Origin: a virus
Lineage: Duplodnaviria; Heunggongvirae; Uroviricota; Caudoviricetes
Length of the DNA: 43,490 nucleotides
Direction: 5' to 3' (one strand)
Virus record (IMG/VR): IMGVR_UViG_2778261673_000008
Location: 1-43,490 of that record
Of this stretch, positions 2,968 to 37,460 are shown one piece after another. Both the position numbers and the translations under genes were made by a program. The notes below the pieces were generated by a model. That model worked only from the letters and a program-made list of their open reading frames with translations. It was not told the origin of the DNA and did not search any database. Position 1 is the first letter of the stretch. Each line of letters opens with the position of its first letter.

Positions 2968-3216
2968 TCATGCAGCGTTGCTCACAGGACGATATACACG
3001 TTGCTGAACAGGAGGCTTTTTACCCTGGAACTCTGCCGGGCTTGCTGCCTGACGTTCATCAAGCCAACGCTCAACTTCATCACGGTTCCATGCGCAGCGT
3101 TTATCGGTGATATACCAGCGTTTAGGAAATTCCCCTGCGCGCTCCATACGGTCGATAGTGCTCCATGACAGTGGCACCACCGCCAGGAGTTCCTTCTTAC
3201 CTAATGCACCTTTCAT
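2968..3216 (-). CDS. AlpA-family DNA-binding protein (likely excisionase/regulator)
   Basis: 82 aa; LLAVVPLSWSTIDRMERAGEFPKRW...DEVERWL resembles AlpA/Xis winged-helix proteins; sits between recombination genes and int. Confidence 0.7.
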   Translation of the reverse strand: MKGALGKKELLAVVPLSWSTIDRMERAGEFPKRWYITDKRCAWNRDEVERWLDERQAASPAEFQGKKPPVQQRVYRPVSNAA

Positions 3217-5416: not shown

Positions 5417-5435
5417 AACTTGTTACCTCGGTCTG

Positions 5436-5513
5436 TTACCGTTGAGGTAATAATTATGCGTATATGGTTTGATGTCAATAGATATGAGTTAAAAAAATTA
5501 CCCGTTAGGTAAT
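5436..5513. promoter_or_regulatory. Left operator region: two copies of palindrome (A/G)TTACC-N5-GGTAAT
   Basis: GTTACC GTTGA GGTAAT at 5435-5451 and ATTACC CGTTA GGTAAT at 5497-5513, upstream of the leftward early operon. Confidence 0.55.
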
Positions 5514-5523
5514 CGAATAGGCA

Positions 5524-5548
5524 ATAAAAAAGCCGCCATAAGGCGGCT
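5524..5548 (-). terminator. Rho-independent terminator downstream of repressor gene
   Basis: GCCGCC-ATAA-GGCGGC hairpin followed by a T-run on the minus strand. Confidence 0.7.
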
Positions 5549-5569
5549 TACTTACTGAAAAATATGGTT

Positions 5570-6154
5570 TTATTGTTTGTTTTTTTCGTTCTGGTTGATG
5601 ACAAATTCAATGTAACTTTCGATCTTTGCTTTCTCGGTTTCGGGTAACAATGCGTAGCGCGAGCGATCATAGTTGATGGTCGCAGGGTCGTGCGGGTGAA
5701 TCAGTAATTCATAGCCGTGACGCCCGAATGCGGATGCAACATTCTCCAGGGTGGAAATGGAAACGCTGACCTCATTGTTTAACAGGCGGCTGATTGTCAC
5801 CTGGGCTACGCCGGATGCGCGGTGAAGTTTTCCCTGTGTTGAAAGGTCGCGGCTTTCGCTCATCCAGCGTTCCAGGTTGTGAGCCGCCAGCTGGCCAATG
5901 TCGCTTGGGCCGACAGGCTGAAAACCTTCCTGAGAAAGCGAGCGATCGATATCAAGCCAGTTACGGGGTTTATTGGCGGCAGCTTCAATTTTTCGTGCAA
6001 CCTGGTCGCCGATAACCTTCTTGCCAAGAGCCCAGCGGTTTACCAGATTTGCCTGAGTTCCAAGTTTTTCAGCCATCCGCGTCTGAACACCATTGAATTC
6101 ACGGTCGATCAAGTCGTTGAGATTTTGCCTGCGGACGTCCTGGATACTTTTCAT
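5570..6154 (-). CDS. Phage repressor with two tandem XRE-type HTH domains, no S24 peptidase domain
   Basis: 194 aa; HTH-like segments near residues 25-65 and 110-160; divergent from the Cro-like gene with operators in between; own terminator. Confidence 0.7.
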   Translation of the reverse strand: MKSIQDVRRQNLNDLIDREFNGVQTRMAEKLGTQANLVNRWALGKKVIGDQVARKIEAAANKPRNWLDIDRSLSQEGFQPVGPSDIGQLAAHNLERWMSESRDLSTQGKLHRASGVAQVTISRLLNNEVSVSISTLENVASAFGRHGYELLIHPHDPATINYDRSRYALLPETEKAKIESYIEFVINQNEKNKQ

Positions 6155-6208
6155 TTTCTGGAAAATCGCCTCATATCTGAATCAGAAGATGATTCAATTT
6201 AAAGCAAT

Positions 6209-6273
6209 ATTACCCAACAGGTAAATGCACCTCGTGGGTAACTATCCTTGATTTTTGTTACCTTATAGGTGAA
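6209..6273. promoter_or_regulatory. Right operator region between repressor and Cro-like gene (three sites)
   Basis: ATTACC CAACA GGTAAA (6209-6225), weaker GCACC TCGTG GGTAA (6227-6241), GTTACC TTATA GGTGAA (6257-6273). Confidence 0.55.
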
Positions 6274-6308
6274 TATTTATTATCTGAAATAAATATCAGG
6301 CAATAGCT

Positions 6309-6539
6309 ATGAGCGATAACGGACATTTCGATTTCAAAAAGCACTGGCTTGCACTTACTCCGGATGAGCGTGAAGCCTTCGCACAGGAAGCCGGAACGAC
6401 GAGTCACTATATCCAGACTCACTTAACAGGTAAGCGCAAAATGCCAGGTAAGGTATTGATGAATGGGCTTTTTAAAGCCTGTAAAACAAGACAATGGCTG
6501 CGCTCAAAAGCAGAACTGGCATACTTCTTCTACTCATGA
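6309..6539 (+). CDS. Cro-like HTH DNA-binding regulator
   Basis: 76 aa, divergent from repressor; HTH-like FAQEAGTTSHYIQTHLTGKR; followed by a terminator. Confidence 0.5.
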   Translation: MSDNGHFDFKKHWLALTPDEREAFAQEAGTTSHYIQTHLTGKRKMPGKVLMNGLFKACKTRQWLRSKAELAYFFYS

Positions 6540-6561
6540 TATCCAGCCACAACCCTCTGTA

Positions 6562-6586
6562 GACCGCCATCCGGCGGTCTTTTCAT
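6562..6586 (+). terminator. Rho-independent terminator after Cro-like gene
   Basis: GACCGCC-ATCC-GGCGGTC hairpin followed by TTTTC. Confidence 0.65.
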
Positions 6587-6594
6587 ATCTATTC

Positions 6595-6610
6595 GTACCT
6601 CAAAGGTAAT
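6595..6610. promoter_or_regulatory. Operator-like palindrome GTACC-N5-GGTAAT
   Basis: GTACC TCAAA GGTAAT just downstream of the terminator and upstream of the 6690 gene. Confidence 0.4.
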
Positions 6611-6689: not shown

Positions 6690-6890
6690 ATGGAAATCAT
6701 TACACGTATTGATGCCGCAAAGCGCGGACTTAAACGCTACTACACCGGAAAACCATGTAAGCACGGACATGACAGTGAACGCTGGGTTTACAACGGACAC
6801 TGTGTTGAGTGCACCATGGAATCAAACCGTCGTATCAGGGCAGAGATTAAGCAGATCATGATTAATTCCTCCCCACAACACTCAAGCTGA
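6690..6890 (+). CDS. Small zinc-binding protein (C-x-H-x-H...H-C-x2-C), function unknown
   Basis: MEIITRIDAAKRGLKRYYTGKPCKHGHDSERWVYNGHCVEC...; occupies the cII-like position between cro-like and O-like genes. Confidence 0.45.
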   Translation: MEIITRIDAAKRGLKRYYTGKPCKHGHDSERWVYNGHCVECTMESNRRIRAEIKQIMINSSPQHSS

Positions 6891-8539: not shown

Positions 8540-8618
8540 ATTACCTTGTAGGTAATAAAATGTTCTAATTTCTATTGATTTCATGTCTTATGTGGTTTTT
8601 AATTACCTAAGGGGTAAA
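8540..8618. promoter_or_regulatory. Two operator palindromes upstream of the 8621 operon
   Basis: ATTACC TTGTA GGTAAT (8540-8556) and ATTACC TAAGG GGTAAA (8602-8618, 3 nt before the ATG), with TATGTGGTT between them. Confidence 0.5.
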
Positions 8619-11111: not shown

Positions 11112-11160
11112 CATGTCACGAGTAGATTATGCATGATGAATTTGATGTGTTTTGAATACT

Positions 11161-11186
11161 GCCGCCAACTATGGCGGCTTTATTTT
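11161..11186 (+). terminator. Rho-independent terminator
   Basis: GCCGCC-AACTAT-GGCGGC followed by TTTATTTT. Confidence 0.7.
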
Positions 11187-11196
11187 GCATGGTACT

Positions 11197-11231
11197 ATTA
11201 CCACAACGGTAACTATTACCACGGTGGTTAT
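11197..11231. promoter_or_regulatory. Two operator palindromes immediately upstream of the small terminase gene
   Basis: ATTACC ACAAC GGTAAC (11197-11213) and ATTACC ACGGT GGTTAT (11215-11231, reaching the start codon). Confidence 0.45.
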
Positions 11232-11826
11232 GATGCCTGCTGAACCTAAAACCTATAAACGCAAATCAACGCAATTTAAGCCACTAACAGCAATGCAGGA
11301 GGCTTATTGCCAGTCATACATCAAAACGCCTGAAAACCAGACTCAGGCAGCGATTAACGCAGGATTCTCCCCAAATACAGCGGCAGTTAAAGCCAGTGTC
11401 ATGATGCGCGATGAACGCATTCAAAAACGGATTGCCGAGTTGATGGAGGAGCGCAACAAACGAATGCGCGTCAGTGCTGATTACGTTCTCATGCGCCTGG
11501 TGGAGATCGACCAGATGGACGTGATCGACATCCTCAACGACGATGGGAGCCTTAAACCAATCCGTGAGTGGCCGAAAATCTGGCGCACTACGCTTAGTGG
11601 CTTTGATCTGTCATCGACCATCATGAACATGAACGAGGATTCGATAGAGACAATCCTCAAAAAAATTAAATGGCCTGACAAGGTGAAGAACCTCGAACTG
11701 ATTGGTAAGCACGTCGACGTCAACGCGTTCAAAGAACGCATGGATGTTAATGTGAATGTGACAATTGCTGATCGCATAGCAGCAGCCAGGAAGAGACTGA
11801 AAGAACGTCAGGATGGCAATCAGTGA
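11230..11826 (+). CDS. Terminase small subunit
   Basis: Start taken at MMPAEPKTYKRKS; AYCQSYIKTPENQTQAAINAGFSPNTAAVKASVMMRDERIQKRI resembles the Terminase_2 small-subunit family; stop overlaps large terminase start. Confidence 0.75.
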   Translation: MMPAEPKTYKRKSTQFKPLTAMQEAYCQSYIKTPENQTQAAINAGFSPNTAAVKASVMMRDERIQKRIAELMEERNKRMRVSADYVLMRLVEIDQMDVIDILNDDGSLKPIREWPKIWRTTLSGFDLSSTIMNMNEDSIETILKKIKWPDKVKNLELIGKHVDVNAFKERMDVNVNVTIADRIAAARKRLKERQDGNQ

Positions 11827-13298
11827 CAGATGCAGCGTTATCTCCTGAAGAGCAGTTGATCGAGGATATTGCAGGGTTCACTCACGATCCGCTTGGCTAT
11901 GCCCTCTATGCGTTCCCGTGGGGGGAAGAGGGGACTGAACTGGCACATGCTTCCGGCCCACGTCAGTGGCAGGCCGATGCGTTCCGAGAGATACGTGATC
12001 ACCTGCAGAATCCAGAGACGCGTTATCAGCCGCTTATGCTGGCACGTGCTTCTGGTCACGGTATTGGTAAATCCGCATTCATCTCAATGCTAATCAACTG
12101 GGGCATGTCCACTTGCGAGGATTGTAAGGTCGTGGTGACCGCCAACACCGACAACCAGCTACGAACGAAGACCTGGCCGGAAATTATCAAGTGGTCGAAC
12201 CTTGCTATCACGAAAGACTGGTTTACCTGTACCGCTACCGCGATGTACAGCAATGATCCTGGGCACGACAAGCGGTGGCGAGCTGACGCAATCCCCTGGT
12301 CTGAGCACAACACTGAGGCATTCGCCGGACTACACAACGAGCGCAAACGCATCATCGTGGTATTCGATGAAGCGTCGAACATTGCGGATCTGGTGTGGGA
12401 AGTTGCTGAGGGTGCGCTTACGGACGAAGACACTGAGATTATCTGGGTGGCGTTCGGAAACCCTACACGTAATACCGGGCGTTTTCGCGAATGTTTCCGC
12501 AAATACAAACACCGCTGGAAAACTGCGCAGATTGACAGCCGGACGGTGGAAGGTACTAACAAACAGCAGTTGCAGAAATGGGTTGATGACTACGGGGAAG
12601 ACAGCGACTTCGTTAAAATCCGTGTGCGCGGCATATTCCCTGATGCATCTGAATTGCAGTTTATCCCTACCGGTCTTACTGATGAGGCAATGAAACGGGT
12701 GGTAACCGCTGCGCAGGTGGCACATGCTCCGGTGATAATCGGTGTTGACCCGGCATATTCAGGCGTTGATGACGCGGTGATATACCTGCGGCAGGGGTTG
12801 CATAGTAAGGTGCTATGGACTGGCAACAAGACCACTGACGATCTGATTATGGCGAAGCGTATCGCTGACTTTGAAGACCAGTATCAGGCTGACGCGGTGT
12901 TCATCGACTTCGGTTACGGAACCGGTCTGAAGTCAATCGGTGACGGCTGGGGGCGCACATGGCAACTTGTTCCGTTCGGTGGTGCGTCAACTGACCCTCA
13001 GATGCTCAACAAGCGCGGGGAGATGTTCAACTCATGCAAGACATGGCTGAGGTTGGGCGGGATGCTGGATGACCAGGAAACAGCGGACGATCTGTCGGCG
13101 GCAGAGTACAAAGTTCGCGTGGACGGTAAAATCGTTATCGAACCGAAGGAAGATATCAAAGAACGACTTGGGCGTTCGCCTGGTAAAGGCGATGCGCTAC
13201 TGCTGACGTTTGCTTTCCCGGTGTCAAAGCGCCTGCGACTTCCCGGGCAGCAGAACCAGCAAGGCAAGGCGCTTACCGAGTACGATCCATATGCTTAG
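11823..13298 (+). CDS. Terminase large subunit
   Basis: 491 aa; Walker A-like ASGHGIGKS and Walker B-like IVVFDEA, then nuclease region; GTG start overlapping terS stop. Confidence 0.85.
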   Translation: MTDAALSPEEQLIEDIAGFTHDPLGYALYAFPWGEEGTELAHASGPRQWQADAFREIRDHLQNPETRYQPLMLARASGHGIGKSAFISMLINWGMSTCEDCKVVVTANTDNQLRTKTWPEIIKWSNLAITKDWFTCTATAMYSNDPGHDKRWRADAIPWSEHNTEAFAGLHNERKRIIVVFDEASNIADLVWEVAEGALTDEDTEIIWVAFGNPTRNTGRFRECFRKYKHRWKTAQIDSRTVEGTNKQQLQKWVDDYGEDSDFVKIRVRGIFPDASELQFIPTGLTDEAMKRVVTAAQVAHAPVIIGVDPAYSGVDDAVIYLRQGLHSKVLWTGNKTTDDLIMAKRIADFEDQYQADAVFIDFGYGTGLKSIGDGWGRTWQLVPFGGASTDPQMLNKRGEMFNSCKTWLRLGGMLDDQETADDLSAAEYKVRVDGKIVIEPKEDIKERLGRSPGKGDALLLTFAFPVSKRLRLPGQQNQQGKALTEYDPYA

Positions 13299-14113
13299 TC
13301 TTTATTTTTATCCTCGAAACCTGATAATCCAGATAGAACACCAAAGTTATTAAAAACGTTTGGCTTACCAGATTTTAATCCGGATAAGTTGTGTTGCTCC
13401 AAAAAGTTGCTAATTGTTTGGCCGTTGCCAAGTGCAAGGCTTTTTATTTGAGATTTTTCAGGGTATTTGAGTTTGTATTCGTCGAAATCATTTTGGAGGG
13501 TCTTATATGCCTCATTCATTCTTCCAAGAGTTTCCGATATCTCTTTTAATGAATGATTTAGAGCTGCTAACTGAGCACTGGCGGATCTCAATTCGTCATC
13601 TTTAGCTTTCAACTCGGCAGTCAATTCCCCCATACTATTCTTTGATCGAATAATCTCTTCTTTCATCTCTTGGATGTCTTTTTCCGCGCCAGTCTTAACT
13701 TTGTCGTATGTAACATCTTTTTTAGCCAATAACCTCTGCAGTCTTGTTTCACGCTGGATTTTTCTTGCCTTCAGGTGATTTTCGATTGAGTCATTATTAT
13801 CAAGAGGCTTTGCTTGCCATACGTTAATGATATTGTTTACCCATGGTAATAGGCAGCAGATAGCAATTACAGATAAGCATGGATAAAACATAACAGTTTT
13901 CCATGTGCTGTTATCTGAGATATATGAAATTTTATCTATTATGTTTGATTTGCTAAAAAATAGATAAAGAATTGATTTCCAGTTGAAGGCGCACCAGGAC
14001 ATAACAAAAGCACCAAGCACAGGGTTTTTGGCTCGATTCACGGCAGTATTGGCAGTAGATAAAAACAGCTCTTTGAACGATTCAAACATGCTAATTACCT
14101 TGAAGTTTTTCAT
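13295..14113 (-). CDS. AT-rich moron: membrane protein with long coiled-coil domain
   Basis: Start taken at MKNFKV; two hydrophobic segments (about residues 32-53 and 73-96), then a 130-aa K/E-rich coiled coil; opposite strand to flanking late genes; operator palindrome 4 nt upstream of the ATG. Confidence 0.5.
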   Translation of the reverse strand: MKNFKVISMFESFKELFLSTANTAVNRAKNPVLGAFVMSWCAFNWKSILYLFFSKSNIIDKISYISDNSTWKTVMFYPCLSVIAICCLLPWVNNIINVWQAKPLDNNDSIENHLKARKIQRETRLQRLLAKKDVTYDKVKTGAEKDIQEMKEEIIRSKNSMGELTAELKAKDDELRSASAQLAALNHSLKEISETLGRMNEAYKTLQNDFDEYKLKYPEKSQIKSLALGNGQTISNFLEQHNLSGLKSGKPNVFNNFGVLSGLSGFEDKNKD

Positions 14114-14116
14114 GAT

Positions 14117-14133
14117 TATACCTTTAAGGTAAT
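14117..14133. promoter_or_regulatory. Operator palindrome TATACC-N5-GGTAAT overlapping the moron promoter
   Basis: Minus-strand reading ATTACCTTAAAGGTATAATCATG: palindrome includes a TATAAT hexamer directly before the ATG. Confidence 0.45.
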
Positions 14134-14172: not shown

Positions 14173-14249
14173 GAACTGGAAGCAATGAGTTATGCCTTCC
14201 GTGGCTGTACTGGTTTACAGCATGAAGTCATCGCAATGGCGTCCTGCTG

Positions 14250-14335: not shown

Positions 14336-14412
14336 TGGCGTGGCATGCAGGATTCGAACCTGCGACCAACCGCTTAGAAGGCGGTTGCTCTGTCCAACTG
14401 AGCTAATGCCAC
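14336..14412 (-). tRNA. tRNA-Arg (anticodon UCU), phage-encoded
   Basis: Hand-folded cloverleaf: acceptor GTGGCAT/ATGCCAC, D-arm GCTC/GAGC, anticodon stem ACCGC/GCGGT with loop CTTCTAA, T-arm GCAGG-TTCGAAT-CCTGC, encoded CCA. Confidence 0.85.
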
Positions 14413-14733
14413 AACGCTGAGAGCACTTAGCCTGTTAAGGCGCCACACTTTGTCGCGGCTCCATAAATGCTCTCATCGTTGTACCCTCGTCTCTTCCGAG
14501 GCGTCACACCGAATCGCCGGGATGGTGAATCCCCGTGCGCGGAATAAAACCGCTCGACTTGCACATTCCGGCTACCTGGTTCGTTTGCCCGAGCAAGGGA
14601 GGGTGCCCCTTAAACGTATCCAGACCGCTATCGGCGCATGTGCCATACGCCGTACTGCTCAAAATAAAAGCTCACTCCACCTGTTCAATTTAACGACAAG
14701 CCAGTCAGGTTAATAACCGGAATGAACTCTTTG

Positions 14734-14750
14734 ATTACCTGAAAGGTAAT
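14734..14750. promoter_or_regulatory. Operator palindrome ATTACC TGAAA GGTAAT upstream of the portal operon
   Basis: Perfect palindrome; followed about 40 bp later by CATATGTGGTT and GGTAATAA, the same composite element as at 34,549-34,619. Confidence 0.5.
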
Positions 14751-14839
14751 AATTTGTGCGTTAAATGTCAACTATCTACGATAAATAAATCATATGTGGT
14801 TAAATTGGTAATAATTTAATTGCGTACGGAGTCATTGAT

Positions 14840-19617: not shown

Positions 19618-19941
19618 ATGGAACTCGTAAACCTCAAAACCGGCACTGACAGCTACCAGGATGAGAGCGGAGAAACCAGAACTCGCGATGAATACCCGTG
19701 GGGGCTGTGCATCACTCTTAATAACGACACATTGAATAAGCTGAAGGCGCAACCTCAGGGCGTCGGAACAGAAGTGATGATAACTGCAAAGGCTGTTATT
19801 CGAGGCCTGTCTGCCAGAGAAACTGACGATGGGGTTAATCGCAGCGCCGATCTGCAGATCACTGATATGGCGATCGCTCCTGTTTCCGGGGATGTAGAAA
19901 AATCAGCGGCTGAAACCCTGTACGGCAATGGGGGTGAGTAA
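19618..19941 (+). CDS. Hypothetical protein (107 aa)
   Basis: AGGAG RBS before ATG 19618. Confidence 0.4.
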   Translation: MELVNLKTGTDSYQDESGETRTRDEYPWGLCITLNNDTLNKLKAQPQGVGTEVMITAKAVIRGLSARETDDGVNRSADLQITDMAIAPVSGDVEKSAAETLYGNGGE

Positions 19942-20546
19942 TGGCCTCTGTAGTAGAGATCTGCAATCGTGCGCTGTCCAATATTGGCAATAGCCGCAGC
20001 ATTAACAGCCTGACGGAAGCCAGCAAGGAAGCGGGGGAATGTTCGCTGCACTTTGAGGCCTGCCGTGATGCTGTGCTTTCTGATTTTGACTGGAACTTTG
20101 CTACCAAACGCGTGGCGCTTGCAGATACGAACAATCCACCGCCTGACTGGGAATATGCGTACCAGTACCCGTCCGATTGTCTGCGCATTACTGAAATTAT
20201 GCTTCCTGGTGTACGCAATCCAACAGCAGCAATGCGCGTTCAGTACGAAGTTGGTGCAGACACCAACGGAACAGGAAAATTGATCTATACAGACCAGCCG
20301 CAGGCATGGCTCAAGTATGTCTCTCGCGTTTCAGATGTGAACATGTTTGATGCCATTTTTATGGAGGCGCTGGCCTGGCGTCTTGCGGCAGCCATTAACA
20401 TGGCGCTGACTGGGAATGCGGATCTCGGTACATTTGCTCTCAATATGTACAATCGCGTGATTCTTAGTGCTGGTTCGCATAGCCAGAATGAATCACAGGA
20501 ACCACAGCCACCGGTTGACGAGTTTACCATTGCGAGGTTGTCCTGA
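19941..20546 (+). CDS. Tail tubular protein A-like (T7 gp11-like position)
   Basis: 201 aa directly preceding an 823-aa protein; assigned by size and synteny. Confidence 0.5.
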   Translation: MASVVEICNRALSNIGNSRSINSLTEASKEAGECSLHFEACRDAVLSDFDWNFATKRVALADTNNPPPDWEYAYQYPSDCLRITEIMLPGVRNPTAAMRVQYEVGADTNGTGKLIYTDQPQAWLKYVSRVSDVNMFDAIFMEALAWRLAAAINMALTGNADLGTFALNMYNRVILSAGSHSQNESQEPQPPVDEFTIARLS

Positions 20547-24026: not shown

Positions 24027-26539
24027 TGCCAGTCGTACCAACAGTATCCGGACGTCAGGTTGAGAGCCGTGGAGTTCAGTCAGCAGGCTTGCAGACGTTT
24101 TCTCAGCCAGGTATTGGTGATGCTTTTGTTCGGGCAGGGGCAGAGGCAATTGATGTTTTGGGGCAGGCAAAACAGCGTGCCAATATTGCCTTGGCTCAGG
24201 AGGCATCTCTTAACCTCAGTCAGATAAGCAGTGATTTGCTGAATAATCCTGAAACAGGATTGCTTAACCTGAAAGGGAAAAATGCTATTGGAAAAGGCCA
24301 TGAGTATACGCAGCAGTTTGATGCTCAGGTCGAACAACTGGCTATGTCGCTGCCGGATGAACAGGCTCGTAATGCTTTCATGCAGCAGGCACAGCAGCAG
24401 CGCATTCAGTTCACTACGCAGGCCGGGCGGCACGAGATAGGGCAAATTAATGCCTACGAAGAAGGTCAGTTTCAGGCGACGCTGCTGAACAATGGTAAAA
24501 ATGCCGCAGCATTGTATGGCGACAATGCCGCATACGTATTGGCTAATAAGCAAACTTTCCAGCAAATTGAGGAGTACGGTGCTGCACATGGCTGGAGCGA
24601 CGAGCAAATACAGGCCAAGAAAATCGAGTTTAAAGAGAAGGTTGCTGATGCAGCATTGTCCCAGTGGTCGGCAAACAATGCGACCGCATTCATCCAAAGT
24701 AATGGCGAGTTAAGTGATACTGCTGCTGGAGCTCGCCGTGCTGTAACAGATAGTGGCTCTTCCGAGCGTGTCCGTGGCATACGCAACAATAACCCCGGAA
24801 ATCTCGAATACAGCAAAACTAATCCGTGGGTAGGCCAGACCGGTGATGATGGTAGATTTGCTAAATTCGAAACACCTGAACACGGGATTCGTGCATTAGG
24901 GCGGAACCTGATGTCGTATCAGCGGCAGGGTATTGATACCGTCAGCGAGATAATTAATCGCTGGGCACCGCCTACTGATAAAAATGACACTATGTCGTAT
25001 ATCAAAGCAGTGTGCGAACAACTTGGCGTTTCTGCTGATGAGCCTCTCGATGCATCAAATCCTGATACCCTGAAGGCGCTTTGTGCAGCCATTATCCATC
25101 ATGAGAACGGTAGCCAGCCATACAGTGATCAGCAGTTAACTGCTGGTGTCAGTGCAGCACTTGGTTTATCAACAATTCCAACCAACACCAAACGCTATAC
25201 CGGTAATGCAGCATTCGATGCGGCATCTCCTGAGGCTCAGGCAAGTTTTATGCGGCAGGCGGATCAACTGCGTCGGCAGCAGCAGGCTGAATATAAAACG
25301 ATGATTGACAGCCAGGTTCGCGATGCGACGGCTGCGTATATGCGTGGCGTTGAATTTCCTAACCCACCAGGTGAGGCTGATTTTATTGCAGCTTATGGCG
25401 TCAGAGAAGGAAACCTGCGATATACCGAGTTCAGAAATACGCAGATCGCTGGACAGTATATAGGCTCTTTCCGCAACATGCCGACAAGCAGCATTACCGC
25501 ATATGTTGAGCAATTACGCCCGGATACTGGTGAGACAGGAGAGGGTTATGCGTCTCGCGCAGCTCTTTATGACAACGTTGTTTCGGCTGCAAATCAGGTG
25601 ATAAAGCAGCGGCAGTCGGATCCTGTGCAGTTCTCTCTTGCCTCCGGACAGGCAAAGCCTATCGACATGAGCAATAAGGATAACTTTGGTCAGAGCGTTG
25701 CCTTGCGTGCCGCTCAGGTCAGTGACCTTGCTAAGTCATATGGCACTCCACTGACGTTCTTTTCCAAAGACGAGGCCAATCAGATCGGTGTTTTCTTTCG
25801 TGATGCTCCAGTTTCCCAACAGGCAGCATATCTCGATACCATCAGGCAGAGCACTGGTGGTGGGCAGGTGTATATGTCAGCACTACAGCAGATCAGTGCC
25901 AACGCTCCATCTGCTGCCGTTGCCGGGATACTGATGGACAAGCCTGGTGGTATTTTGGCAGAAAAAAACTGGTTTAATCCGGATGTTTCCGTGTCTCCTG
26001 AAACCGCTGCGCAGACAATTCTTGCTGGCGCGGCGGCTCGTAAAGGTACTGATGATGCGAAAGGTATTCCGATGCCTAAAGATGCTGATCTTCGCCTTGA
26101 GTTTTCTGACATGGTGAAGGATGCATTTGCTGGTGATGCTCAGGGGGCATCAATGGCATACGAGATCGCAAAGGACTATTACGCTGGTGTGATGGCGAAA
26201 AAAGGCGTGGTATCAGGCGAAATTGACACTGATATCTGGAAACAGGCTGTTAACGTAGCTACAGGTGGCGTGCATGACTATAACGGAATGGGGAATGTCC
26301 TTTTGCCGTGGGGAATGTCTGTAGAGCAATTCGATAAGCAGGTTAATCAGGCTTGGAATGAACAAGTTGTCGGCACCGGGATAAAAACACCGCCTGGTCA
26401 GTATGGTTTGCAAAGTTACGGCGATAGTCAGTACCTGGTGAAACTTGGTACTGGTTATCTGCTGAAAGATGATGGTTCTCCTGTTGTTCTTGATCTGACA
26501 CAGAAGCGTCAGAGATTCTCCGGAGATATTCCGCAATGA
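24026..26539 (+). CDS. Internal virion / ejection protein (837 aa)
   Basis: Start taken at MPVVPT after GGAGGA; conserved-looking block GIRNNNPGNLEYSKTNPWVGQTGDDGRFAKFETPEHG may be an enzymatic domain. Confidence 0.5.
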   Translation: MPVVPTVSGRQVESRGVQSAGLQTFSQPGIGDAFVRAGAEAIDVLGQAKQRANIALAQEASLNLSQISSDLLNNPETGLLNLKGKNAIGKGHEYTQQFDAQVEQLAMSLPDEQARNAFMQQAQQQRIQFTTQAGRHEIGQINAYEEGQFQATLLNNGKNAAALYGDNAAYVLANKQTFQQIEEYGAAHGWSDEQIQAKKIEFKEKVADAALSQWSANNATAFIQSNGELSDTAAGARRAVTDSGSSERVRGIRNNNPGNLEYSKTNPWVGQTGDDGRFAKFETPEHGIRALGRNLMSYQRQGIDTVSEIINRWAPPTDKNDTMSYIKAVCEQLGVSADEPLDASNPDTLKALCAAIIHHENGSQPYSDQQLTAGVSAALGLSTIPTNTKRYTGNAAFDAASPEAQASFMRQADQLRRQQQAEYKTMIDSQVRDATAAYMRGVEFPNPPGEADFIAAYGVREGNLRYTEFRNTQIAGQYIGSFRNMPTSSITAYVEQLRPDTGETGEGYASRAALYDNVVSAANQVIKQRQSDPVQFSLASGQAKPIDMSNKDNFGQSVALRAAQVSDLAKSYGTPLTFFSKDEANQIGVFFRDAPVSQQAAYLDTIRQSTGGGQVYMSALQQISANAPSAAVAGILMDKPGGILAEKNWFNPDVSVSPETAAQTILAGAAARKGTDDAKGIPMPKDADLRLEFSDMVKDAFAGDAQGASMAYEIAKDYYAGVMAKKGVVSGEIDTDIWKQAVNVATGGVHDYNGMGNVLLPWGMSVEQFDKQVNQAWNEQVVGTGIKTPPGQYGLQSYGDSQYLVKLGTGYLLKDDGSPVVLDLTQKRQRFSGDIPQ

Positions 26540-32264: not shown

Positions 32265-32281
32265 GATCACCCGTGAGGTAA
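32265..32281. promoter_or_regulatory. Operator-like palindrome ATCACC-N5-GGTAAT
   Basis: ATCACC CGTGA GGTAAT between the Bro gene 3' end and the 32137 gene start. Confidence 0.35.
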
Positions 32282-32346
32282 TAGTAAGCTATTCACCTGC
32301 AATCTGTACAGAATTATTTAAAGGCACATCCCTGTGCCGCCGTCCG

Positions 32347-33057
32347 TCAGAAGAACCCTGCTTTGTCGTTGATATACTCCGCGTGGGTCTGGATATCACG
32401 CAGGCATTTGCTCACACCGACAATGTAGCAGAACATGGTGGTCAGCTCCGCCGCCGCGCCCGATACATCATGCCCGTCGTCCTGCAACTGATTCAGCAGA
32501 TTCATCAGCAATGAGTTCTCCGTCAGGCCGAGAACACCAGACGGCGAATGAATCAGACTGCGGTAGCCGGGCTTCAGTGGGGCACTGTAGGTTTTGTTCT
32601 CTATCTTCATTGCCTGCATCACTGCTGACGCCGTGGCGTTGGCTACCTGGTCGGCAACCATCTTTATGCGTTCTTCCTGCGGGAACGAGTTTTTAATGTA
32701 GCTTCCTGTTCGACGGATCTGAGGAAGTACCTCACCTGTAACCCATTTACGAAAGCGGTAGGGGATAGTGCCTAGTGTCACTGCGTCGCGGCAGCGGAGG
32801 ATCAGTGTGTAGAGGCCTGACTCGGAGATGATGTTGATCTCTTTTACTCGGCTGTCAAAAATTGCACGATGTTCATGCCCTATGTTGAACATAGACCTTT
32901 CATCATCATCCAGTTTTTCAAGTGCTTGGGTGACGTTTTGGATACGCAGCGCACTACAAACGTCTTGGGCTACAAACCATGGTTGGCCATCGATAATGAT
33001 GGAACGGATAGGGTTAACAGATTCAAATTTGAAGATGGCAGTTTGAGCATTAGCCAT
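32347..33057 (-). CDS. Bro-N domain antirepressor-like protein
   Basis: Start taken at MANAQTAIFKFE (GGAG RBS); N-terminal IFKFESVNPIRSIIIDGQPWFVAQDVCSAL is a Bro-N signature; C-terminal domain is paralogous to ORF 34206-34463. Confidence 0.7.
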   Translation of the reverse strand: MANAQTAIFKFESVNPIRSIIIDGQPWFVAQDVCSALRIQNVTQALEKLDDDERSMFNIGHEHRAIFDSRVKEINIISESGLYTLILRCRDAVTLGTIPYRFRKWVTGEVLPQIRRTGSYIKNSFPQEERIKMVADQVANATASAVMQAMKIENKTYSAPLKPGYRSLIHSPSGVLGLTENSLLMNLLNQLQDDGHDVSGAAAELTTMFCYIVGVSKCLRDIQTHAEYINDKAGFF

Positions 33058-33325
33058 GGTGGTTATCTCCACTTAGTGATTTTAATCACCACCGCAACGC
33101 CAATTACTGGTGGTGAACTGGACAAGGTTGGCGTACCGGCCTAAGTGGTACCGGTGTCCTTTCGGACCCCTGCCCAGCCCACCATAATTCGGATATAGCT
33201 GTGCTTAACGCATAAAAAAACCACGTCTGGCGTGGTATGCGCCACTTAGTAACCCGGGACGCCAATCCCGGCACTGGATTTTGCCAGTGCCCGATTACTA
33301 TGGCACAAGAGGAGTGCGATGTAAA

Positions 33326-33435
33326 TTTACCGAAAAGGTAATGATAAGCGCGAATAAATATCAAAATCAACCGTATTTGGTTGATGGAGTTTAATGCTTG
33401 ATCACCTGAAAGCAAGATATTACCTTTAAGGTAAT
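33326..33435. promoter_or_regulatory. Two operator palindromes in the divergent region between Bro and the 33455 gene
   Basis: TTTACC GAAAA GGTAAT (33326-33342) and ATTACC TTTAA GGTAAT (33419-33435, 20 nt before the ATG). Confidence 0.5.
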
Positions 33436-33454: not shown

Positions 33455-34183
33455 ATGGAAGTTTTCTGGATAGTTGTTGGTGTGGTTGCGGTGATTATTT
33501 ACGTTATCAACCAGAACAAGACTAAGATCTCTGATCGTACGGTCGTAAATCATAACAAAACGATAAAGACCGAAGATGGGGAGATAACGATTAATCGTAC
33601 ACAGGTGATAGAACACACCTCTACTCAGTTTCAAAAAACTGGAGGTAATGCGCCTAATATTTCCGCACCTCCTGCTTATGATAGTGCGGTAATCCAGACA
33701 TATTATAAACAGCAGGAGTTAGCAAAAGAGAGGCAACTGATTCAGCCAAAGCCATTTACAGCAGAGCTTCCACCTGGAGTGTCAACGCGTCCGGCATATC
33801 ATGGAAGATTCCCTGGTGATGACACATCGTCTCAGTCATCTAAAAAAGCACCTCAGGCAGTATCAGAGCCAGCAAGAATACCTTCTGTATCGCCGCCAAA
33901 AGAAGAATCAGCTAACAGAGTTTCAAGTGGTAGCAAGCAGTGCTTGCGATGCAGAATAAACCTTCCATATGAAAAATTCAGGAAATCGTCAAAAAATCCA
34001 GATGGATTGACTAAGTGGTGTGCAAGGTGTCTCGATGGCCCAAAGAATACACGCCATATGAAGTGGTGCCCAATTTGTAATGTCCGCAGAAAACGAACCA
34101 GCTTTTACCCTAATAATCAAAATGCGGATGGTTTAATGGCATGGTGCAAAACGTGCTGGGATGAGCACAAAGCGAAACGATAG
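33455..34183 (+). CDS. Membrane-anchored protein with C-terminal tandem zinc-ribbon-like motifs
   Basis: N-terminal TM helix (VFWIVVGVVAVIIYVI), Pro/Ser-rich linker, two repeats of C-x2-C...DGL..WC-x2-C (CLRCRIN...DGLTKWCARC and CPICNV...DGLMAWCKTC). Confidence 0.5.
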   Translation: MEVFWIVVGVVAVIIYVINQNKTKISDRTVVNHNKTIKTEDGEITINRTQVIEHTSTQFQKTGGNAPNISAPPAYDSAVIQTYYKQQELAKERQLIQPKPFTAELPPGVSTRPAYHGRFPGDDTSSQSSKKAPQAVSEPARIPSVSPPKEESANRVSSGSKQCLRCRINLPYEKFRKSSKNPDGLTKWCARCLDGPKNTRHMKWCPICNVRRKRTSFYPNNQNADGLMAWCKTCWDEHKAKR

Positions 34184-34208
34184 GCCGCTCTTGCGGCCTT
34201 TAAATTTA
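34182..34208 (+). terminator. Terminator hairpin between convergent genes
   Basis: AGGCCGC-TCTT-GCGGCCT followed by TTTAAATTT. Confidence 0.55.
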
Positions 34209-34463
34209 CCGGGTTTGTTTTCGTAATTGTTCGGCACAATAGTCGAGATGTGTTTGCAGATCCCGCATAGACATCTGTGAGCTGGTGACGTAGTTAATCA
34301 GTGCAGTCAGTTCGGCAAGTGGGCCATCGACATTAAATCCATCCTTATCGAGATCCCGGAGTAATTTCATCAAGTGCGATCCCTCCACCAGTGACCTGAC
34401 GCCTCCCGGCGTGTGAATCCTTTCGGTAAATCCCTCTTCCAGTGGATAGTGATACTGCTGCAT
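34206..34463 (-). CDS. Small protein paralogous to the Bro C-terminal domain; candidate SOS-controlled antirepressor
   Basis: Start taken at MQQYHYPLEEGF (GGAG RBS); aligns with the Bro C-terminus (HTPGGVRSLVEGSHLMKLLRDLDKDGFNVDGPLAELT versus HSPSGVLGLTENSLLMNLLNQLQDDGHDVSGAAAELT); LexA box 22 bp upstream. Confidence 0.5.
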   Translation of the reverse strand: MQQYHYPLEEGFTERIHTPGGVRSLVEGSHLMKLLRDLDKDGFNVDGPLAELTALINYVTSSQMSMRDLQTHLDYCAEQLRKQTR

Positions 34464-34484: not shown

Positions 34485-34500
34485 CTGTATATTTATACAG
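34485..34500. promoter_or_regulatory. LexA (SOS) box
   Basis: AACTGTATATTTATACAGTAT matches CTGT-N8-ACAG and the TACTGTATATATATACAGTA consensus; lies in the promoter region of the 34206-34463 gene. Confidence 0.7.
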
Positions 34501-34548
34501 TATCAAATAATTTATTTGCTATCCAGCACGTTTTGAAAATTACCTGAA

Positions 34549-34565
34549 AGGTAATATCTGTTCGA
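34549..34565. promoter_or_regulatory. Operator palindrome ATTACC TGAAA GGTAAT upstream of the tailspike gene
   Basis: Identical to the site at 14734-14750; followed by CATATGTGGTT (34594-34604) and GGTAATAAAAT (34610-34620). Confidence 0.5.
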
Positions 34566-34658
34566 ATTCACAGTCTATCTATCCATATGTGGTTTTTCAG
34601 GTAATAAAATAACCGGATATGCGGCGCAACGGGTGCTGCGACTATCTGGAGATTTAAC

Positions 34659-37070
34659 ATGACGGTCTCAACCGAAGTCGACCATAACGACTACACAGGG
34701 AACGGCGTTACCACATCTTTCCCGTACACGTTCCGCATCTTCAAGAAGTCAGATCTCACCGTCCAGGTCGCTGACCTTAACGAAAATATTACGGTGCTGA
34801 CTCTGGATACCGATTACTCCGTTACCGGGGCGGGTACCTATTCTGGCGGGAATGTCGTGCTGATGTCACCGCTGGCCAACGGATGGCAGATTTCTATCTC
34901 GCGCGACCTCCCAGTTACCCAAGAGACTGACCTCCGTAACCAGGGGAAGTTCTTCGCAGAGGTCCATGAGGATGCGTTCGACAAGCTGACCATGCTTATC
35001 CAGCAGTGTTTCAGCTTTCTACGCCTGGCGCTGCGCAAGCCGTCGTTCATCGCGAACTATTATGACGCACTCAACAACCGCATTCGTAACCTTCGTGACC
35101 CGTCACAGGCGCAGGACGCAGCCACGAAGAATTATGTTGATGGGCAGATCGTTGACAACACCAATGCCTGGAAAGCTGGTGATGCCATTCTTGATCAGAA
35201 GATTGACAGTAATTTTGCGAGAACTCTACGGGTTCCAGAAAGCACTGTTGACCAACTAAGCCCGGTATCTGTTCGGAAAAACTCGTTGTTAGGATGGGAT
35301 AGCAACGGAAAGCCAATACCTGTTTTTTCGATGACAGATACAGCAGATCTCGCAATAAAGTTAGCATCTCATGAAGATGGTCTTGGTATGTCTTTGCTGG
35401 GCATGCCAGGGTCTGGATCTTTAAATCAACTTATTGGTAAGTGGACTTGTCCTGAGGCATGGGGCGTTATTACTGATTCCCAGCCAGACGCTCATGCTAA
35501 TTCTAAAAAAATGTTTAATATGTTTGAGTGGTTACGATCTTTAGGTGGCGGTGTAGCATATTTCACACCAGGTAAAACCTATTGGATTGATTTTATTCAG
35601 TTCGTACCCAGCAATGTTGTAATTATAGGATATGGGGCTACGGTAAAACAGATAAACCCATTGTCAATGTATGGTCGTGGTGGTTTCGTTTTTGGGAGTG
35701 GCAGAGAATGGAACTATAAAAAAGCAAAAGCGGCATACAATTCCGGTAATTACCCGTCTTCCGTTGCTGATTCTACGATGGCAGAGTTACCACTGAAATC
35801 TTACCTGAGAGATAATCAGTCTTATGTTCAGTGTGAGAAATGTAAAGTTTATGGCTTGCGCATGTCTGCAGTGTTTACTGATTCCAGCTATTGGGGAGGC
35901 TATGCATTTAATTGTGTTAATGCACAGCATATAAGATTTTTCGATGTGGTTGGTGATGGTTGGACTCAATTGTTTAACTTTGGTAACGATAGTTCTTCCT
36001 CTTCTCCATCTTGTTATGATGTAATTGCAAAAGGTGCTACCGTTGAAAAGGCGGATCTTGTTCGCACTTATTATGCATTTGGTTTTATTGCAAACTCAAC
36101 AGATTGCTGGATTGAAGATTGTGATCTACTTAAGCCTATGACTGCCGGAACTATTAATGGTTCAGGAGCTGCTACAAACTTTGTAGAAAACTGTGGGTTT
36201 AAAGATTTACGAGCTGCAAAATTAGGTCGTACAGTATCTTCGGAGATGGTTCTATTAAATAATGCAAAAGGCTGTCTTGTTGAGAATATAGATGTTGGTG
36301 ACTGCATTAATGGTGTAGCCACCTACTATACTGATGATTCATATAATGATGCTAACATGCCGAATATTATAAGAAACATTTCTGCATCAGCTGATAATGT
36401 TGTCGCTCTTCGTGCAAAATACTCTGTTATTGATGCATTTCATGGTAAGGGGGCATACATAAATGAGTTGTATTTCGCAAATAATAACGCAAGCGGAAAC
36501 AAAATAAATAAAAACCCTAAATCTATAGGCTTTGGTGGCACAAACCTGCAATCATGGTTTTTAACCAATAATACTGTTCTTGGTTGGTTCAGAAGATATT
36601 TTTATTTAAGACCATCAGAAATAATTCTGAACGACAAAGCAGACACATTATCATGGACATTTAACAAATTAGTATCAACAAAAAACGGTGTTGATCTTTA
36701 CTTCATGTGGAGGGTTCCAGATGATATAAAAGCTATTGATGATATAAGAGCTTTTATAAGATTTAACATTTCACCTGATCAGAATGCAGCAGCAGCAGGA
36801 TCTACTGTTGAAGCAAGTTTAATTCAGATGATATCGTTTGACGGAGATATAAATACAGATCCTTACACGGCGTTTTCTAATTCAAAAGTTGCTACATCTG
36901 GAGTTGAAAACACTACAATAGTAACTCAAATGGGGTCAACTGCCCCTGGCTTTGTAAAAATGGCAGATGAAACACATGGACTTGCATATAGTTGGTATGT
37001 GTTATTTAAAATGACACATAACGTAAATAACAATTATATGAAAGAAATCAGAATAGCGGGGTATAATTAA
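34659..37070 (+). CDS. Tailspike / tail fibre protein
   Basis: 803 aa; N-terminal segment of phage-typical GC content, then a long AT-rich C-terminal part with beta-rich N/G/S/T/Y composition. Confidence 0.7.
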   Translation: MTVSTEVDHNDYTGNGVTTSFPYTFRIFKKSDLTVQVADLNENITVLTLDTDYSVTGAGTYSGGNVVLMSPLANGWQISISRDLPVTQETDLRNQGKFFAEVHEDAFDKLTMLIQQCFSFLRLALRKPSFIANYYDALNNRIRNLRDPSQAQDAATKNYVDGQIVDNTNAWKAGDAILDQKIDSNFARTLRVPESTVDQLSPVSVRKNSLLGWDSNGKPIPVFSMTDTADLAIKLASHEDGLGMSLLGMPGSGSLNQLIGKWTCPEAWGVITDSQPDAHANSKKMFNMFEWLRSLGGGVAYFTPGKTYWIDFIQFVPSNVVIIGYGATVKQINPLSMYGRGGFVFGSGREWNYKKAKAAYNSGNYPSSVADSTMAELPLKSYLRDNQSYVQCEKCKVYGLRMSAVFTDSSYWGGYAFNCVNAQHIRFFDVVGDGWTQLFNFGNDSSSSSPSCYDVIAKGATVEKADLVRTYYAFGFIANSTDCWIEDCDLLKPMTAGTINGSGAATNFVENCGFKDLRAAKLGRTVSSEMVLLNNAKGCLVENIDVGDCINGVATYYTDDSYNDANMPNIIRNISASADNVVALRAKYSVIDAFHGKGAYINELYFANNNASGNKINKNPKSIGFGGTNLQSWFLTNNTVLGWFRRYFYLRPSEIILNDKADTLSWTFNKLVSTKNGVDLYFMWRVPDDIKAIDDIRAFIRFNISPDQNAAAAGSTVEASLIQMISFDGDINTDPYTAFSNSKVATSGVENTTIVTQMGSTAPGFVKMADETHGLAYSWYVLFKMTHNVNNNYMKEIRIAGYN

Positions 37071-37342: not shown

Positions 37343-37460
37343 AAAAACACGTTTTCAATGATCATTTGTCATGATTACCATTTATCCATAAATGGTTTAT
37401 TGTGTATGATGGACTGACCAAACTAAGGAGGTTCATCATGCATAGTAAACGGTGGTCATC

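Follow-up and report, generated by a model that had tools for sequence, protein, structure and literature searches.

A palindrome family around the rep gene of a phiV10/epsilon15-type prophage as the local part of a predicted prophage-wide operator set

The immunity region of a prophage contained in a 43,490-nucleotide stretch of DNA (the window) carries copies of a 17-bp palindrome, ATTACC-N5-GGTAAT, that are very probably operators of a non-cleavable repressor, Rep. On the sequence evidence, these copies would be the local members of a set of about 15 sites spread over the whole prophage, from which Rep would be released by way of an antirepressor, Ant. The finding is sound but mostly known: structures of the Rep family are available, and phage epsilon15 already has these sites in its annotation. 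The element is a podovirus prophage of the phiV10/epsilon15 type, a group that belongs to Uetakevirus, rather than a lambdoid one. Sites, statistics, conservation, positions and protein homologies were computed here. The features of the immunity region are listed below, with palindromes given without strand.

5435 to 5451, predicted OL proximal operator GTTACCGTTGAGGTAAT, overlapping the -10/+1 of PL; half-sites invariant in the cassette alignment
5450 to 5478, minus strand, PL, the leftward early promoter TTGACA-17-AATTAT (promoter scan, 10/12 matches)
5497 to 5513, predicted OL distal operator ATTACCCGTTAGGTAAT, a perfect palindrome
5530 to 5549, minus strand, intrinsic terminator of the rep transcript (sequence scan; the same feature is annotated in phiV10)
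5570 to 6154, minus strand, rep, a 194-aa SPC32H Rep-type prophage repressor (match to PDB 5D50_A)
6209 to 6225, predicted OR-a operator ATTACCCAACAGGTAAA, rep-proximal; GGTAAA invariant in five phages
6226 to 6242, predicted OR-b operator TGCACCTCGTGGGTAAC, the middle site, degenerate and spaced 17 bp from OR-a
6257 to 6273, predicted OR-c operator GTTACCTTATAGGTGAA, within the spacer/-10 of the putative PR
6309 to 6539, plus strand, cro-like HTH protein of 76 aa, first gene of the rightward operon (PHROG 35, E 6e-13)
6594 to 6610, predicted sixth local operator CGTACCTCAAAGGTAAT, between the terminator of the cro-like gene (6561-6580) and the ORF at 6690-6890

All five palindromes claimed for this region in a preliminary description were found in the window sequence. 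The rep gene lies between them and is divergent from the cro-like HTH gene, whose family, PHROG 35, is annotated 'transcriptional repressor'. Three predicted sites at OR and two at the leftward promoter are seen in the sequence, with the promoter scan and alignments. The middle OR site had been placed at 6227-6241, which is only its 15-bp core; the site is present, and the full 17-mer occupies 6226-6242. On the leftward side the two OL sites bracket PL, the centre of the distal site lying 27 bp upstream of the PL -35 and 62 bp from the proximal site. At OR the sites are spaced by 17 bp and 31 bp and keep a fixed register around an invariant TTGATT in the alignment of five phages. The putative PR reads TTGATT (6248-6253), 17 nt, GAATAT (6271-6276), with the TTGATT invariant in the five phages, and an alternative PR from the promoter scan is TTGTTA-17-TATTAT at 6255-6283. 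The right half of OR-a, read on the minus strand as TTTACC, is likely the -35 of the rep promoter; the putative P-rep, read by eye from hexamers, runs TTTACC (6225-6220), 17 nt, TTAAAT (6202-6197). We infer the promoters other than PL: those at PR, P-rep, 8575 and terS are our own hexamer readings, none of which was flagged by the promoter scan. In the five-phage alignment OR-b stays in register and its ACC...GGTAA core does not vary, and its counterpart is strong in epsilon15, SPC32H and BUCT711 whereas it is degenerate in the window; judged on these sequences, the weak middle OR site is real. The preliminary description overlooked the local copy at 6594-6610, which has a syntenic counterpart in Tyrion at 35365, as well as ten copies elsewhere in the prophage.

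Rep itself matches 5D50_A in a phmmer search of PDB (E 4e-42) over residues 1-190 of 194, and its PDB matches are only to the Rep of phage SPC32H. Overall identity to SPC32H Rep is 43%, with 53% in the N-terminal, 34% in the middle and 45% in the C-terminal domain. The middle domain gives a Pfam HTH_3 match at aa 106-147, and a Pfam search with E up to 0.1 found no peptidase domain in Rep, only HTH families. The summary of the published SPC32H structure in PMC9986798 assigns DNA binding to the N-terminal domain of SPC32H Rep, dimerisation to the middle domain, and tetramerisation and antirepressor binding to the C-terminal domain; papers citing the SPC32H work describe a tetramer that binds palindromic DNA via its N-terminal domains. 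The preliminary description had given Rep two tandem HTH domains and no peptidase. Two HTH-like regions are indeed present and Pfam detects no peptidase, but the second HTH does not hold up as a reader of DNA, since the published domain in this position, according to that summary, serves dimerisation.

It had also been pointed out that the half-site differs by one base from that of lambda. As a sign of kinship this does not stand. BLASTP of Rep against the lambda CI N-terminal domain gave no alignment, and no CI, 434 or P22 repressor chains were among the PDB matches of Rep. Because CI does not align and the PDB matches are only to SPC32H Rep, the resemblance is coincidental, and lambda homology as its cause is ruled out by the BLASTP and PDB results.

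The layout does resemble lambda in several respects: the repressor and cro genes diverge, OR is tripartite, OL has several sites, and the operators are 17 bp long with two-fold symmetry. A lambda-like bistable switch, in which a CI-like repressor opposes Cro at a three-site OR, only OL and OR matter and the other copies are incidental, would accommodate the divergent rep and cro-like genes, the three OR sites and the paired OL sites, as well as the position of the PR-nearest site inside the PR core and of the rep-nearest site on the putative rep -35. We regard this explanation as improbable. The other copies are non-coding, syntenic in five phages and in part of a duplicated promoter cassette; Rep, unrelated to CI, lacks an S24 peptidase domain; and the best consensus match at OR is the rep-proximal site, the reverse of lambda OR3, with affinity deduced from the match. 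The two systems differ in their unrelated proteins, in the S24 autocleavage domain that Rep lacks, in operators that extend beyond OL and OR, and, as proposed here, in induction through an antirepressor. Spacing differs too, adjacent lambda sites lying about 24 bp apart and window pairs bracketing promoters at 62 bp. Of the lambda OR/OL logic put forward earlier, the tripartite OR and paired OL are borne out, but the operators are distributed over about 13 promoter regions rather than OL and OR only.

Motif counts over the window showed the palindrome family to be strongly enriched. With at most one mismatch, the core TTACC-N5-GGTAA has 16 matches in the whole window versus 0.62 expected, and 0 of 100 shuffled windows contained 16 or more. 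The 17-mer palindrome with at most 3 mismatches has 47 matches in the window versus 15 expected. All but one of the 16 core matches are non-coding, although non-coding DNA makes up 8% of the prophage (binomial P 5e-16), and a composition-matched model for non-coding DNA predicts 0.12 core matches. Ten further copies fall beyond the immunity region, nine of them in non-coding DNA. Similar numbers hold in SPC32H, epsilon15, Tyrion and Klebsiella phage BUCT711, where 13-18 palindrome copies per genome, versus 0.4-0.7 expected, are syntenic. A separate candidate for a second enriched motif, ATGTGGTT, was dropped, as the bare 8-mer with one mismatch is near expectation (48 versus 40) and shows no enrichment; the composite ATGTGGTT-N7-TAnnA is mildly enriched.

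The copies outside the immunity region are as follows.

8540 to 8618, plus strand, second promoter-operator cassette (sites 8540-8556 and 8602-8618), preceding a DUF1064 gene
11197 to 11231, plus strand, two predicted operators side by side (11197-11213 and 11215-11231, spacing 18 bp)
14117 to 14133, predicted operator inside the spacer/-10 of the minus-strand promoter ATGACC-17-TATAAT (14143-14115)
14734 to 14750, predicted operator upstream of the structural (portal-head-tail) operon
32266 to 32282, operator-like copy ATCACCCGTGAGGTAAT, flanked by the BRO gene and a DUF4760 gene
33326 to 33342, predicted operator adjoining the -35 of the minus-strand isrK-C4-BRO antirepressor promoter
33419 to 33435, predicted operator just upstream of the ORF at 33455-34183, 93 bp from the 33326 site
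34539 to 34555, predicted operator in the divergent ant/tailspike intergenic region

Promoter scans place copies on promoter cores at PL, the moron promoter (14143-14115, minus strand, which drives the moron ORF) and the BRO antirepressor promoter; the predicted start of the isrK-C4-BRO transcript, near 33290, coincides with the 5' end of isrK. The 8540 and 8602 sites lie 62 bp apart and bracket a TTGATT at 8575-8580. The 11197/11215 pair follows a terminator (11161-11178) and adjoins an extended -10 (TGgTACTAT), directly ahead of the small-terminase start codon (ATG, 11233). Ahead of the structural and tailspike operons a copy stands 40-55 bp upstream of the likely -10, and occlusion is not obvious there.

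Seven protein_bind features labelled 'repressor' in the epsilon15 GenBank record (AY150271.2) have the identical consensus, ATTACC-N5-GGTAAT. They lie before terS, before the gp3/portal operon, in the gp19-tailspike gap, at OL and before a RuvC-like gene, and correspond to window sites 11197, 14734, 34539, 5435/5497 and 8540. Thus the 11197 site is the counterpart of epsilon15 12-27, and the copies at 14734-14750 and 34539-34555 are syntenic with the annotated sites 2931-2947 and 19895-19911. The records differ in that the three OR sites are present yet unannotated in epsilon15, and in that epsilon15 has three OL sites and the window two. The record of phiV10, the closest named relative of the window phage, annotates no operators.

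Copies that stand between a terminator and the next gene (6594 after 6561-6580; 11197 after 11161-11178), together with the structural and tailspike copies well upstream of the likely -10, are the kind of placement expected if dispersed copies were elongation roadblocks, like the 'stoperators' of mycobacteriophage L5, that stop read-through between operons rather than act as promoter operators. L5 stoperators are asymmetric 13-mers that work in a single orientation within transcribed DNA. The gp71 stoperators of L5 do share with the window the spread of many repressor sites over the genome in short intergenic gaps. We nevertheless consider roadblocks unlikely: wherever a promoter could be called, a copy overlaps its -10/+1 or its spacer, or copies bracket it in a fixed cassette, and the window sites are symmetric and promoter-associated whereas the L5 sites depend on orientation. 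That the repeats are RNA or DNA hairpins, acting as processing sites, terminators or stabilisers rather than protein operators, is scarcely credible. A stem of 5-7 bp is possible in each copy and several copies lie in 5' leaders. These stems fold weakly (-3.3 to -5.6 kcal/mol) and lack a U-tract, their sequence is invariant and not merely complementary, and many copies sit upstream of a -35, hence would not be transcribed. Orthologous OR sites also carry one-sided, uncompensated changes, such as TGCACC...GGTAAC and TCACC...GGTAA. The weak folding and the one-sided changes rule out the RNA hairpin or terminator reading.

As to the protein that reads the palindromes, the N-terminal helix-turn-helix of Rep would recognise the half-site TTACC. 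Four phages share the helix NLVNRW (aa 36-41) unchanged though Rep identity drops to 43%, and a protein search found it near-invariant in 86 Rep homologues. At the three loci with the most divergent helices, all have (A/P)NL(V/I)(N/S)RW and the same TTACC/GGTAA sites. No relative with both a changed recognition helix and a changed palindrome was found in the phage tblastn search, the 86 homologues and the three loci; these relatives came from Escherichia, Salmonella, Klebsiella, Enterobacter and Serratia, and Citrobacter proteins were checked for the helix only. Another reader, the cro-like HTH protein (6309-6539) or an early-left AlpA-like or PerC-like regulator, with Rep acting elsewhere, seems quite improbable. 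The cro-like protein is 76-84% identical among four phages that share the palindrome, it belongs to a PHROG annotated as transcriptional repressor, and the literature searched, which consisted of citing papers, gave no direct binding data for the motif and no description of the operators. Against this reading, the epsilon15 curators attribute the sites to the repressor, binding to palindromic sites is reported for the Rep homologue of SPC32H, and operator pairs suit a protein with two DNA-binding dimers. It is moreover the norm for repressor and Cro to share operators, so that this is more a complement than an alternative: the cro-like protein, equally conserved, could read the same palindromes that we assign to Rep.

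The prophage also encodes the predicted means to relieve Rep.

32347 to 33057, minus strand, predicted second antirepressor, with BRO-N and an Ant-like C-terminal domain (Pfam Bro-N, E 1e-19)
33106 to 33290, minus strand, isrK-type RNA (33214-33290) then C4 antisense RNA (33106-33189), in the leader of the BRO antirepressor gene
34206 to 34463, minus strand, ant, an 85-aa predicted antirepressor (PDB 5D50_E 'Anti-repressor protein', E 6e-47, ~87% identity)
34485 to 34500, LexA (SOS) box CTGTATATTTATACAG, perfect, 22 bp upstream of the ant start codon

The SPC32H Rep/Ant antirepression system was reportedly described by Kim and Ryu (2013, J Virol) and Kim et al. (2016, PNAS). The window shares with it (PDB 5D50, 5D4Z) a full-length Rep homologue, the closely similar Ant, a rep gene divergent from the cro-like gene, an ant gene divergent from the tailspike gene, a LexA box at ant, and the same palindrome at the same positions. 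SPC32H differs in having neither the BRO-Ant fusion of the window nor its isrK and C4 RNAs. In epsilon15 a conserved LexA box, CTGTATAAACATACAG, is found at the same place. Residues 155-228 of the BRO protein are 43% identical to Ant, and the protein matches PHROG anti-repressor families. Both RNAs match their Rfam models over full length and above the gathering score; for C4 (RF01695) the score is 63.6 bits against a gathering score of 45. The lack of a cleavage domain in Rep had been presented as an anomaly. It ceases to be one given a predicted LexA-controlled antirepressor gene 28 kb away: a LexA box in front of the gene for its Ant partner accounts for the lack of a peptidase domain in Rep.

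These observations suggest the following scheme, for which tetramer formation, N-terminal DNA binding, Ant action and LexA control are taken from the literature on the homologue. The five sites and the 6594 copy would be the local share of about 15 operators, all placed at or beside promoters, through which one protein, Rep, would directly silence early and late units, whereas lambda repressor controls only two early promoters. The controlled units would be PL, PR/P-rep, the DUF1064 gene, the small terminase, the structural operon, tailspike/ant, the BRO antirepressor and the moron gene. At OR, PR and the -35 of the rep promoter would lie under the three sites, so that Rep would repress PR and probably also regulate its own gene. 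Induction would proceed without RecA-mediated cleavage: DNA damage would take LexA off the box at 34485-34500, the 85-aa Ant would then be made and bind the C-terminal domain of Rep, and Rep would leave the DNA. Citing literature has Ant contacting this C-terminal oligomerisation domain and not the DNA-binding surface. The BRO-fused Ant-like protein may be kept off by Rep at its own promoter and by the C4 antisense RNA. In phage ZX5, whose repressor is identical, overexpressing that protein left no free phage and lowered lysis-gene transcription by >99.9%.

Phages P1 and P7 offer a parallel in layout, with a non-cleavable repressor, C1, many dispersed operators over separate operons that include an antirepressor operon, and, in immI, a C4-family antisense RNA that controls the antirepressor gene ant from its leader. 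P1 itself is a plasmid prophage with asymmetric 17-mer operators; the window phage is a 39-kb integrating podovirus with two-fold symmetric palindromes. Rep has no Pfam or PDB match to a C1-type repressor, and no icd-like ORF was seen in the window. The route from an SOS signal through a small LexA-repressed protein to a non-cleavable repressor is shared with 186 Tum, Gifsy GfoA/GfhA and N15 AntC. No sequence relationship to these was seen, the PHROG and PDB matches of Ant being only to the SPC32H Ant family.

The paired sites may bear on how Rep engages DNA. By core position the window pairs are 5436/5498 and 8541/8603, both 62 bp apart, and 9 of 10 operator pairs in five genomes have exactly this spacing. 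In the five phages the 8540-8618 cassette aligns with the PL cassette column for column, and both operators and a TATTGA -35 block are invariant in the ten cassettes. At PL and the 8575 promoter, two sites about six helical turns apart would bracket the -35 and -10, and we infer that one Rep tetramer, with its two DNA-binding dimers, might clamp both. Tentatively, such a clamp may act genome-wide instead of as a switch at two promoters, each tetramer gripping a pair of in-phase palindromes at the 62-bp spacing (or pairs that are adjacent or far apart) and thereby directly locking early, late, lysis-side and antirepressor promoters; we hold this to be possible but doubtful, and a loop of 62 bp is tight, which counts against a single tetramer spanning the pair. 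Under the clamp reading, about 15 operators would need to change jointly, so that operator and recognition helix would have stayed fixed in all the relatives examined. Heteroimmunity of phiV10-type and epsilon15-type repressors, suggested by their 42% identity, is unsupported, as the operators are shared. DNA engagement by tetrameric repressors 'has not been extensively characterized', according to PMC9986798, and the fixed 62-bp pairs provide a simple test system for how a two-dimer tetrameric repressor engages DNA.

The immunity region is carried by 562 of 5,426 complete E. coli genomes. The operator map therefore applies to a common prophage group, which includes the O157 phage phiV10, used as a reporter and diagnostic phage. 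Operators, promoter cassette and LexA/Ant route together make a parts list for induction prediction and phage engineering, and the lambda-based expectation of a local switch is corrected. If the clamp reading is true, cross-immunity would be predicted across the group, the evolution of specificity would shift from operator recognition to the Rep-antirepressor interface, and two antirepressor routes, a LexA-gated Ant and a C4-RNA-gated BRO-Ant fusion, would meet at that interface.

On direct reading, all five palindromes placed around the repressor gene (rep, 5570-6154, minus strand) by the preliminary description are present, two at the leftward early promoter (OL) and three between rep and the divergent cro-like gene (OR; cro-like gene 6309-6539, plus strand):

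5435-5451, OL operator, GTTACCGTTGAGGTAAT, sequence read directly
5497-5513, OL operator, ATTACCCGTTAGGTAAT, sequence read directly
6209-6225, OR operator, ATTACCCAACAGGTAAA, sequence read directly
6226-6242, degenerate site between the OR sites, TGCACCTCGTGGGTAAC (6227-6241, as first described, is its 15-bp core)
6257-6273, OR operator, GTTACCTTATAGGTGAA, sequence read directly

A search that allowed up to one mismatch to the core TTACC-N5-GGTAA added a sixth local copy, previously unlisted, at 6594-6610, and others starting at 8541, 8603, 11198, 11216, 14118, 14735, 32267, 33327, 33420, 34540 and 35801. The resulting 16 copies in the 43.5-kb window compare with 0.62 expected, a count reached in none of 100 shuffles of the window; the enrichment is real and well past chance. 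Placed on our gene map, 15 of these 16 copies fall within the non-coding 8% of the prophage (binomial P ~5e-16), and a first-order Markov model predicts 0.12 core copies in non-coding DNA. The copy at 35801, inside the tailspike gene, may be a chance occurrence. Ahead of the lysis genes the window retains only a half-site, ATTACC (37374-37379), where epsilon15 has a full palindrome (24703-24719 of its locus); a deletion appears to have taken the remainder.

phiV10, vB_EcoP_ZX5 and their relatives among the Uetakevirus podoviruses share 98-99% identity with the region, which occurs in 562 of 5,426 complete E. coli genomes; the element is not lambdoid. An integrase is followed by the leftward early operon (methylase, PerC-like, AlpA-like, RecT, exonuclease), rep and the rightward operon (cro-like, DnaT-like and P-like replication genes). 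The genes for terminase, head, tail, tailspike and lysis come next. The assignment of the palindrome to a repressor is already made in the epsilon15 GenBank record (AY150271.2), in which seven protein_bind features labelled "repressor" have the same ATTACC-N5-GGTAAT sequence: one each before the small terminase gene, the gp3/portal operon and the RuvC-like gene, one between gp19 and tailspike and three at OL. Three further, unannotated sites lie at the epsilon15 OR in the layout described for the window (ATTACCATAAAGGTAAA, GTTACCATAACGGTAAT, TTCACCAGAAAGGTAAT). Core copies are syntenic in all four relatives searched.

Core copies in relatives, with numbers expected from shuffling
SPC32H (Salmonella podovirus): 18 copies, 0.74 expected
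epsilon15: 15 copies, 0.68 expected
Enterobacter phage Tyrion: 15 copies, 0.53 expected
Klebsiella phage BUCT711: 13 copies, 0.42 expected

Pfam places HTH_3 at residues 106-147 of the rep product and a weak HTH at 21-61, and detected no peptidase domain, in agreement with the two HTH regions and lack of a cleavable domain first described. Rep is a full-length match to the SPC32H repressor (PDB 5D50 chain A; E 4e-42), the only solved protein that it hits with an E cutoff of 0.01. According to papers that cite the SPC32H structure (among them PMC9986798), SPC32H Rep has an N-terminal DNA-binding, a middle dimerisation and a C-terminal tetramer-forming and Ant-binding domain, and sits as a tetramer on palindromic DNA, the two N-terminal domains on each palindrome belonging to different dimers. 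Given that layout, the second HTH corresponds to the dimerisation module and is not a second DNA-reading head. A switch operating by lambda OR/OL logic alone is contradicted by this unlike protein family and by copies spread and conserved beyond OL and OR.

Among four repressors, the phiV10 and epsilon15/SPC32H types share only 43% identity (N-terminal 53%, middle 34%, C-terminal 45%), with the helix segment NLVNRW invariant; 86 homologues read (A/P)NL(V/I)(N/S)RW throughout. Loci with the most divergent segments, including that of a Serratia protein, keep three TTACC/GGTAA-type OR sites. An invariant helix and invariant sites fit Rep as reader of the palindrome, and leave no covariation between them to compare. 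In lambda, Cro uses the operator sites of the repressor; by analogy the highly conserved cro-like protein (PHROG 35) may share the Rep palindromes.

An 85-aa ORF (34206-34463, minus strand) encodes a protein ~87% identical to the SPC32H antirepressor Ant (5D50 chain E, E 6e-47), yet the Rep C-terminal domain, its binding partner, is only 45% identical. A perfect LexA box (CTGTATATTTATACAG, 34485-34500) lies 22 bp upstream of ant, and epsilon15 has one in the equivalent position. Together, the Ant homologue and LexA box directly explain a Rep without a cleavage domain: Kim and Ryu reportedly found in 2013 that ant is repressed by LexA and that Rep is inactivated by Ant, not by RecA-mediated cleavage. 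Two further LexA-like boxes (CTGT-N8-ACAG) were seen, one at 34558-34573 (CTGTTCGAATTCACAG), 2 bp downstream of the ant/tailspike intergenic palindrome and not conserved in epsilon15, the other at 14205-14220, between the moron promoter region and the tRNA gene. The ZX5 repressor is identical to that of the window. Its overexpression abolished free phage and lowered holin and endolysin transcripts by >99.9%, and overexpression of the ZX5 BRO-type antirepressor reduced lysogeny; the ZX5 study defined no operators.

A module resembling P1 immI is located between ant and the tail genes:

33214-33290, minus strand, isrK-type RNA, leader of the BRO-N gene
33106-33189, minus strand, C4 antisense RNA, leader of the BRO-N gene
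32347-33057, minus strand, BRO-N protein gene, downstream of both RNAs

The last 74 residues of the BRO-N protein are 43% identical to Ant. The module is absent from SPC32H and epsilon15, and appears to offer a second route of antirepression, gated by RNA.

The three-site OR is supported by alignment of five phages, because all three sites keep a constant register relative to a -35, TTGATT, that does not vary; even the middle site, which is degenerate in the window and in Tyrion, retains ACC...GGTAA as an invariant core. We read the putative rightward promoter as TTGATT, 17 nt, GAATAT, and the putative rep promoter, on the minus strand, as TTTACC, 17 nt, TTAAAT, using the invariant GGTAAA half of the rep-proximal site. 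A promoter scan placed the leftward promoter at TTGACA-17-AATTAT (minus strand), with its -10/+1 under one operator and the other operator upstream of the -35. This promoter and that of the DUF1064/RuvC-like gene, each from five phages, give ten cassettes that align column for column (operator, ~18 nt, TATTGA, ~17 nt, -10 fused to a second operator), with both operators and the -35 block invariant. Operator spacing is exactly 62 bp in nine and 63 bp in one; 62 bp is about six helical turns, placing paired operators on the same DNA face. Elsewhere, a palindrome abuts the -35 of a promoter whose predicted start is the 5' end of the isrK-type RNA, and the small terminase palindrome directly follows what we read as a putative extended -10 (TGgTACTAT). 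Weak stems (-3.3 to -5.6 kcal/mol), one-sided changes between orthologous sites and the position of many copies upstream of a -35 make a hairpin role for the palindromes unlikely. Copies downstream of terminators possibly act as roadblocks.

In a near-identical E. coli prophage (12526-13200), RefSeq starts the small terminase gene at a TTG equivalent to window 11152, which would enclose a terminator and two Rep operators (11152-11232); comparison with epsilon15 indicates ATG 11233 as the true start. Between the terminase and portal genes an AT-rich moron ORF (13295-14113, minus strand) is inserted, encoding a predicted coiled-coil/membrane protein that could be placed in no family. The moron promoter (14143-14115, minus strand, ATGACC-17-TATAAT) has a palindrome in the spacer/-10, so the moron would be repressed in the lysogen, which is unusual for a moron. 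Beside the tRNA-Arg gene (14339-14412, minus strand), ~280 GC-rich bp without ORFs (14420-14700) matched no Rfam family; at the corresponding place the epsilon15 entry lists an RNase III processing site.

In the window and in epsilon15 alike, a composite motif, ATGTGGTT-7 nt-TAnnA, is found ahead of the structural, tailspike and lysis operons:

14794-14813, 34587-34606 and 37390-37409, window
2991-3010, 19943-19962 and 24754-24773, epsilon15 locus

Counts are 4 against 1.4 expected (window) and 5 against 0.9 (epsilon15), and each syntenic copy follows a Rep palindrome, or what is left of one, at a distance of 40-55 bp. The motif is a candidate element of late promoters, to which no activator has been assigned.

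The system belongs to the SPC32H/epsilon15 Rep-Ant family, all of whose testable defining features were found. With its non-cleavable repressor, many dispersed operators and antirepressor module guarded by C4 antisense RNA, its regulatory logic is closer to that of phage P1 than of lambda. Novelty, if any, is confined to four points: the phiV10-type operator map, the proposed promoter clamp with its fixed 62-bp spacing, operators that do not vary across all relatives examined, and the putative second antirepressor route.
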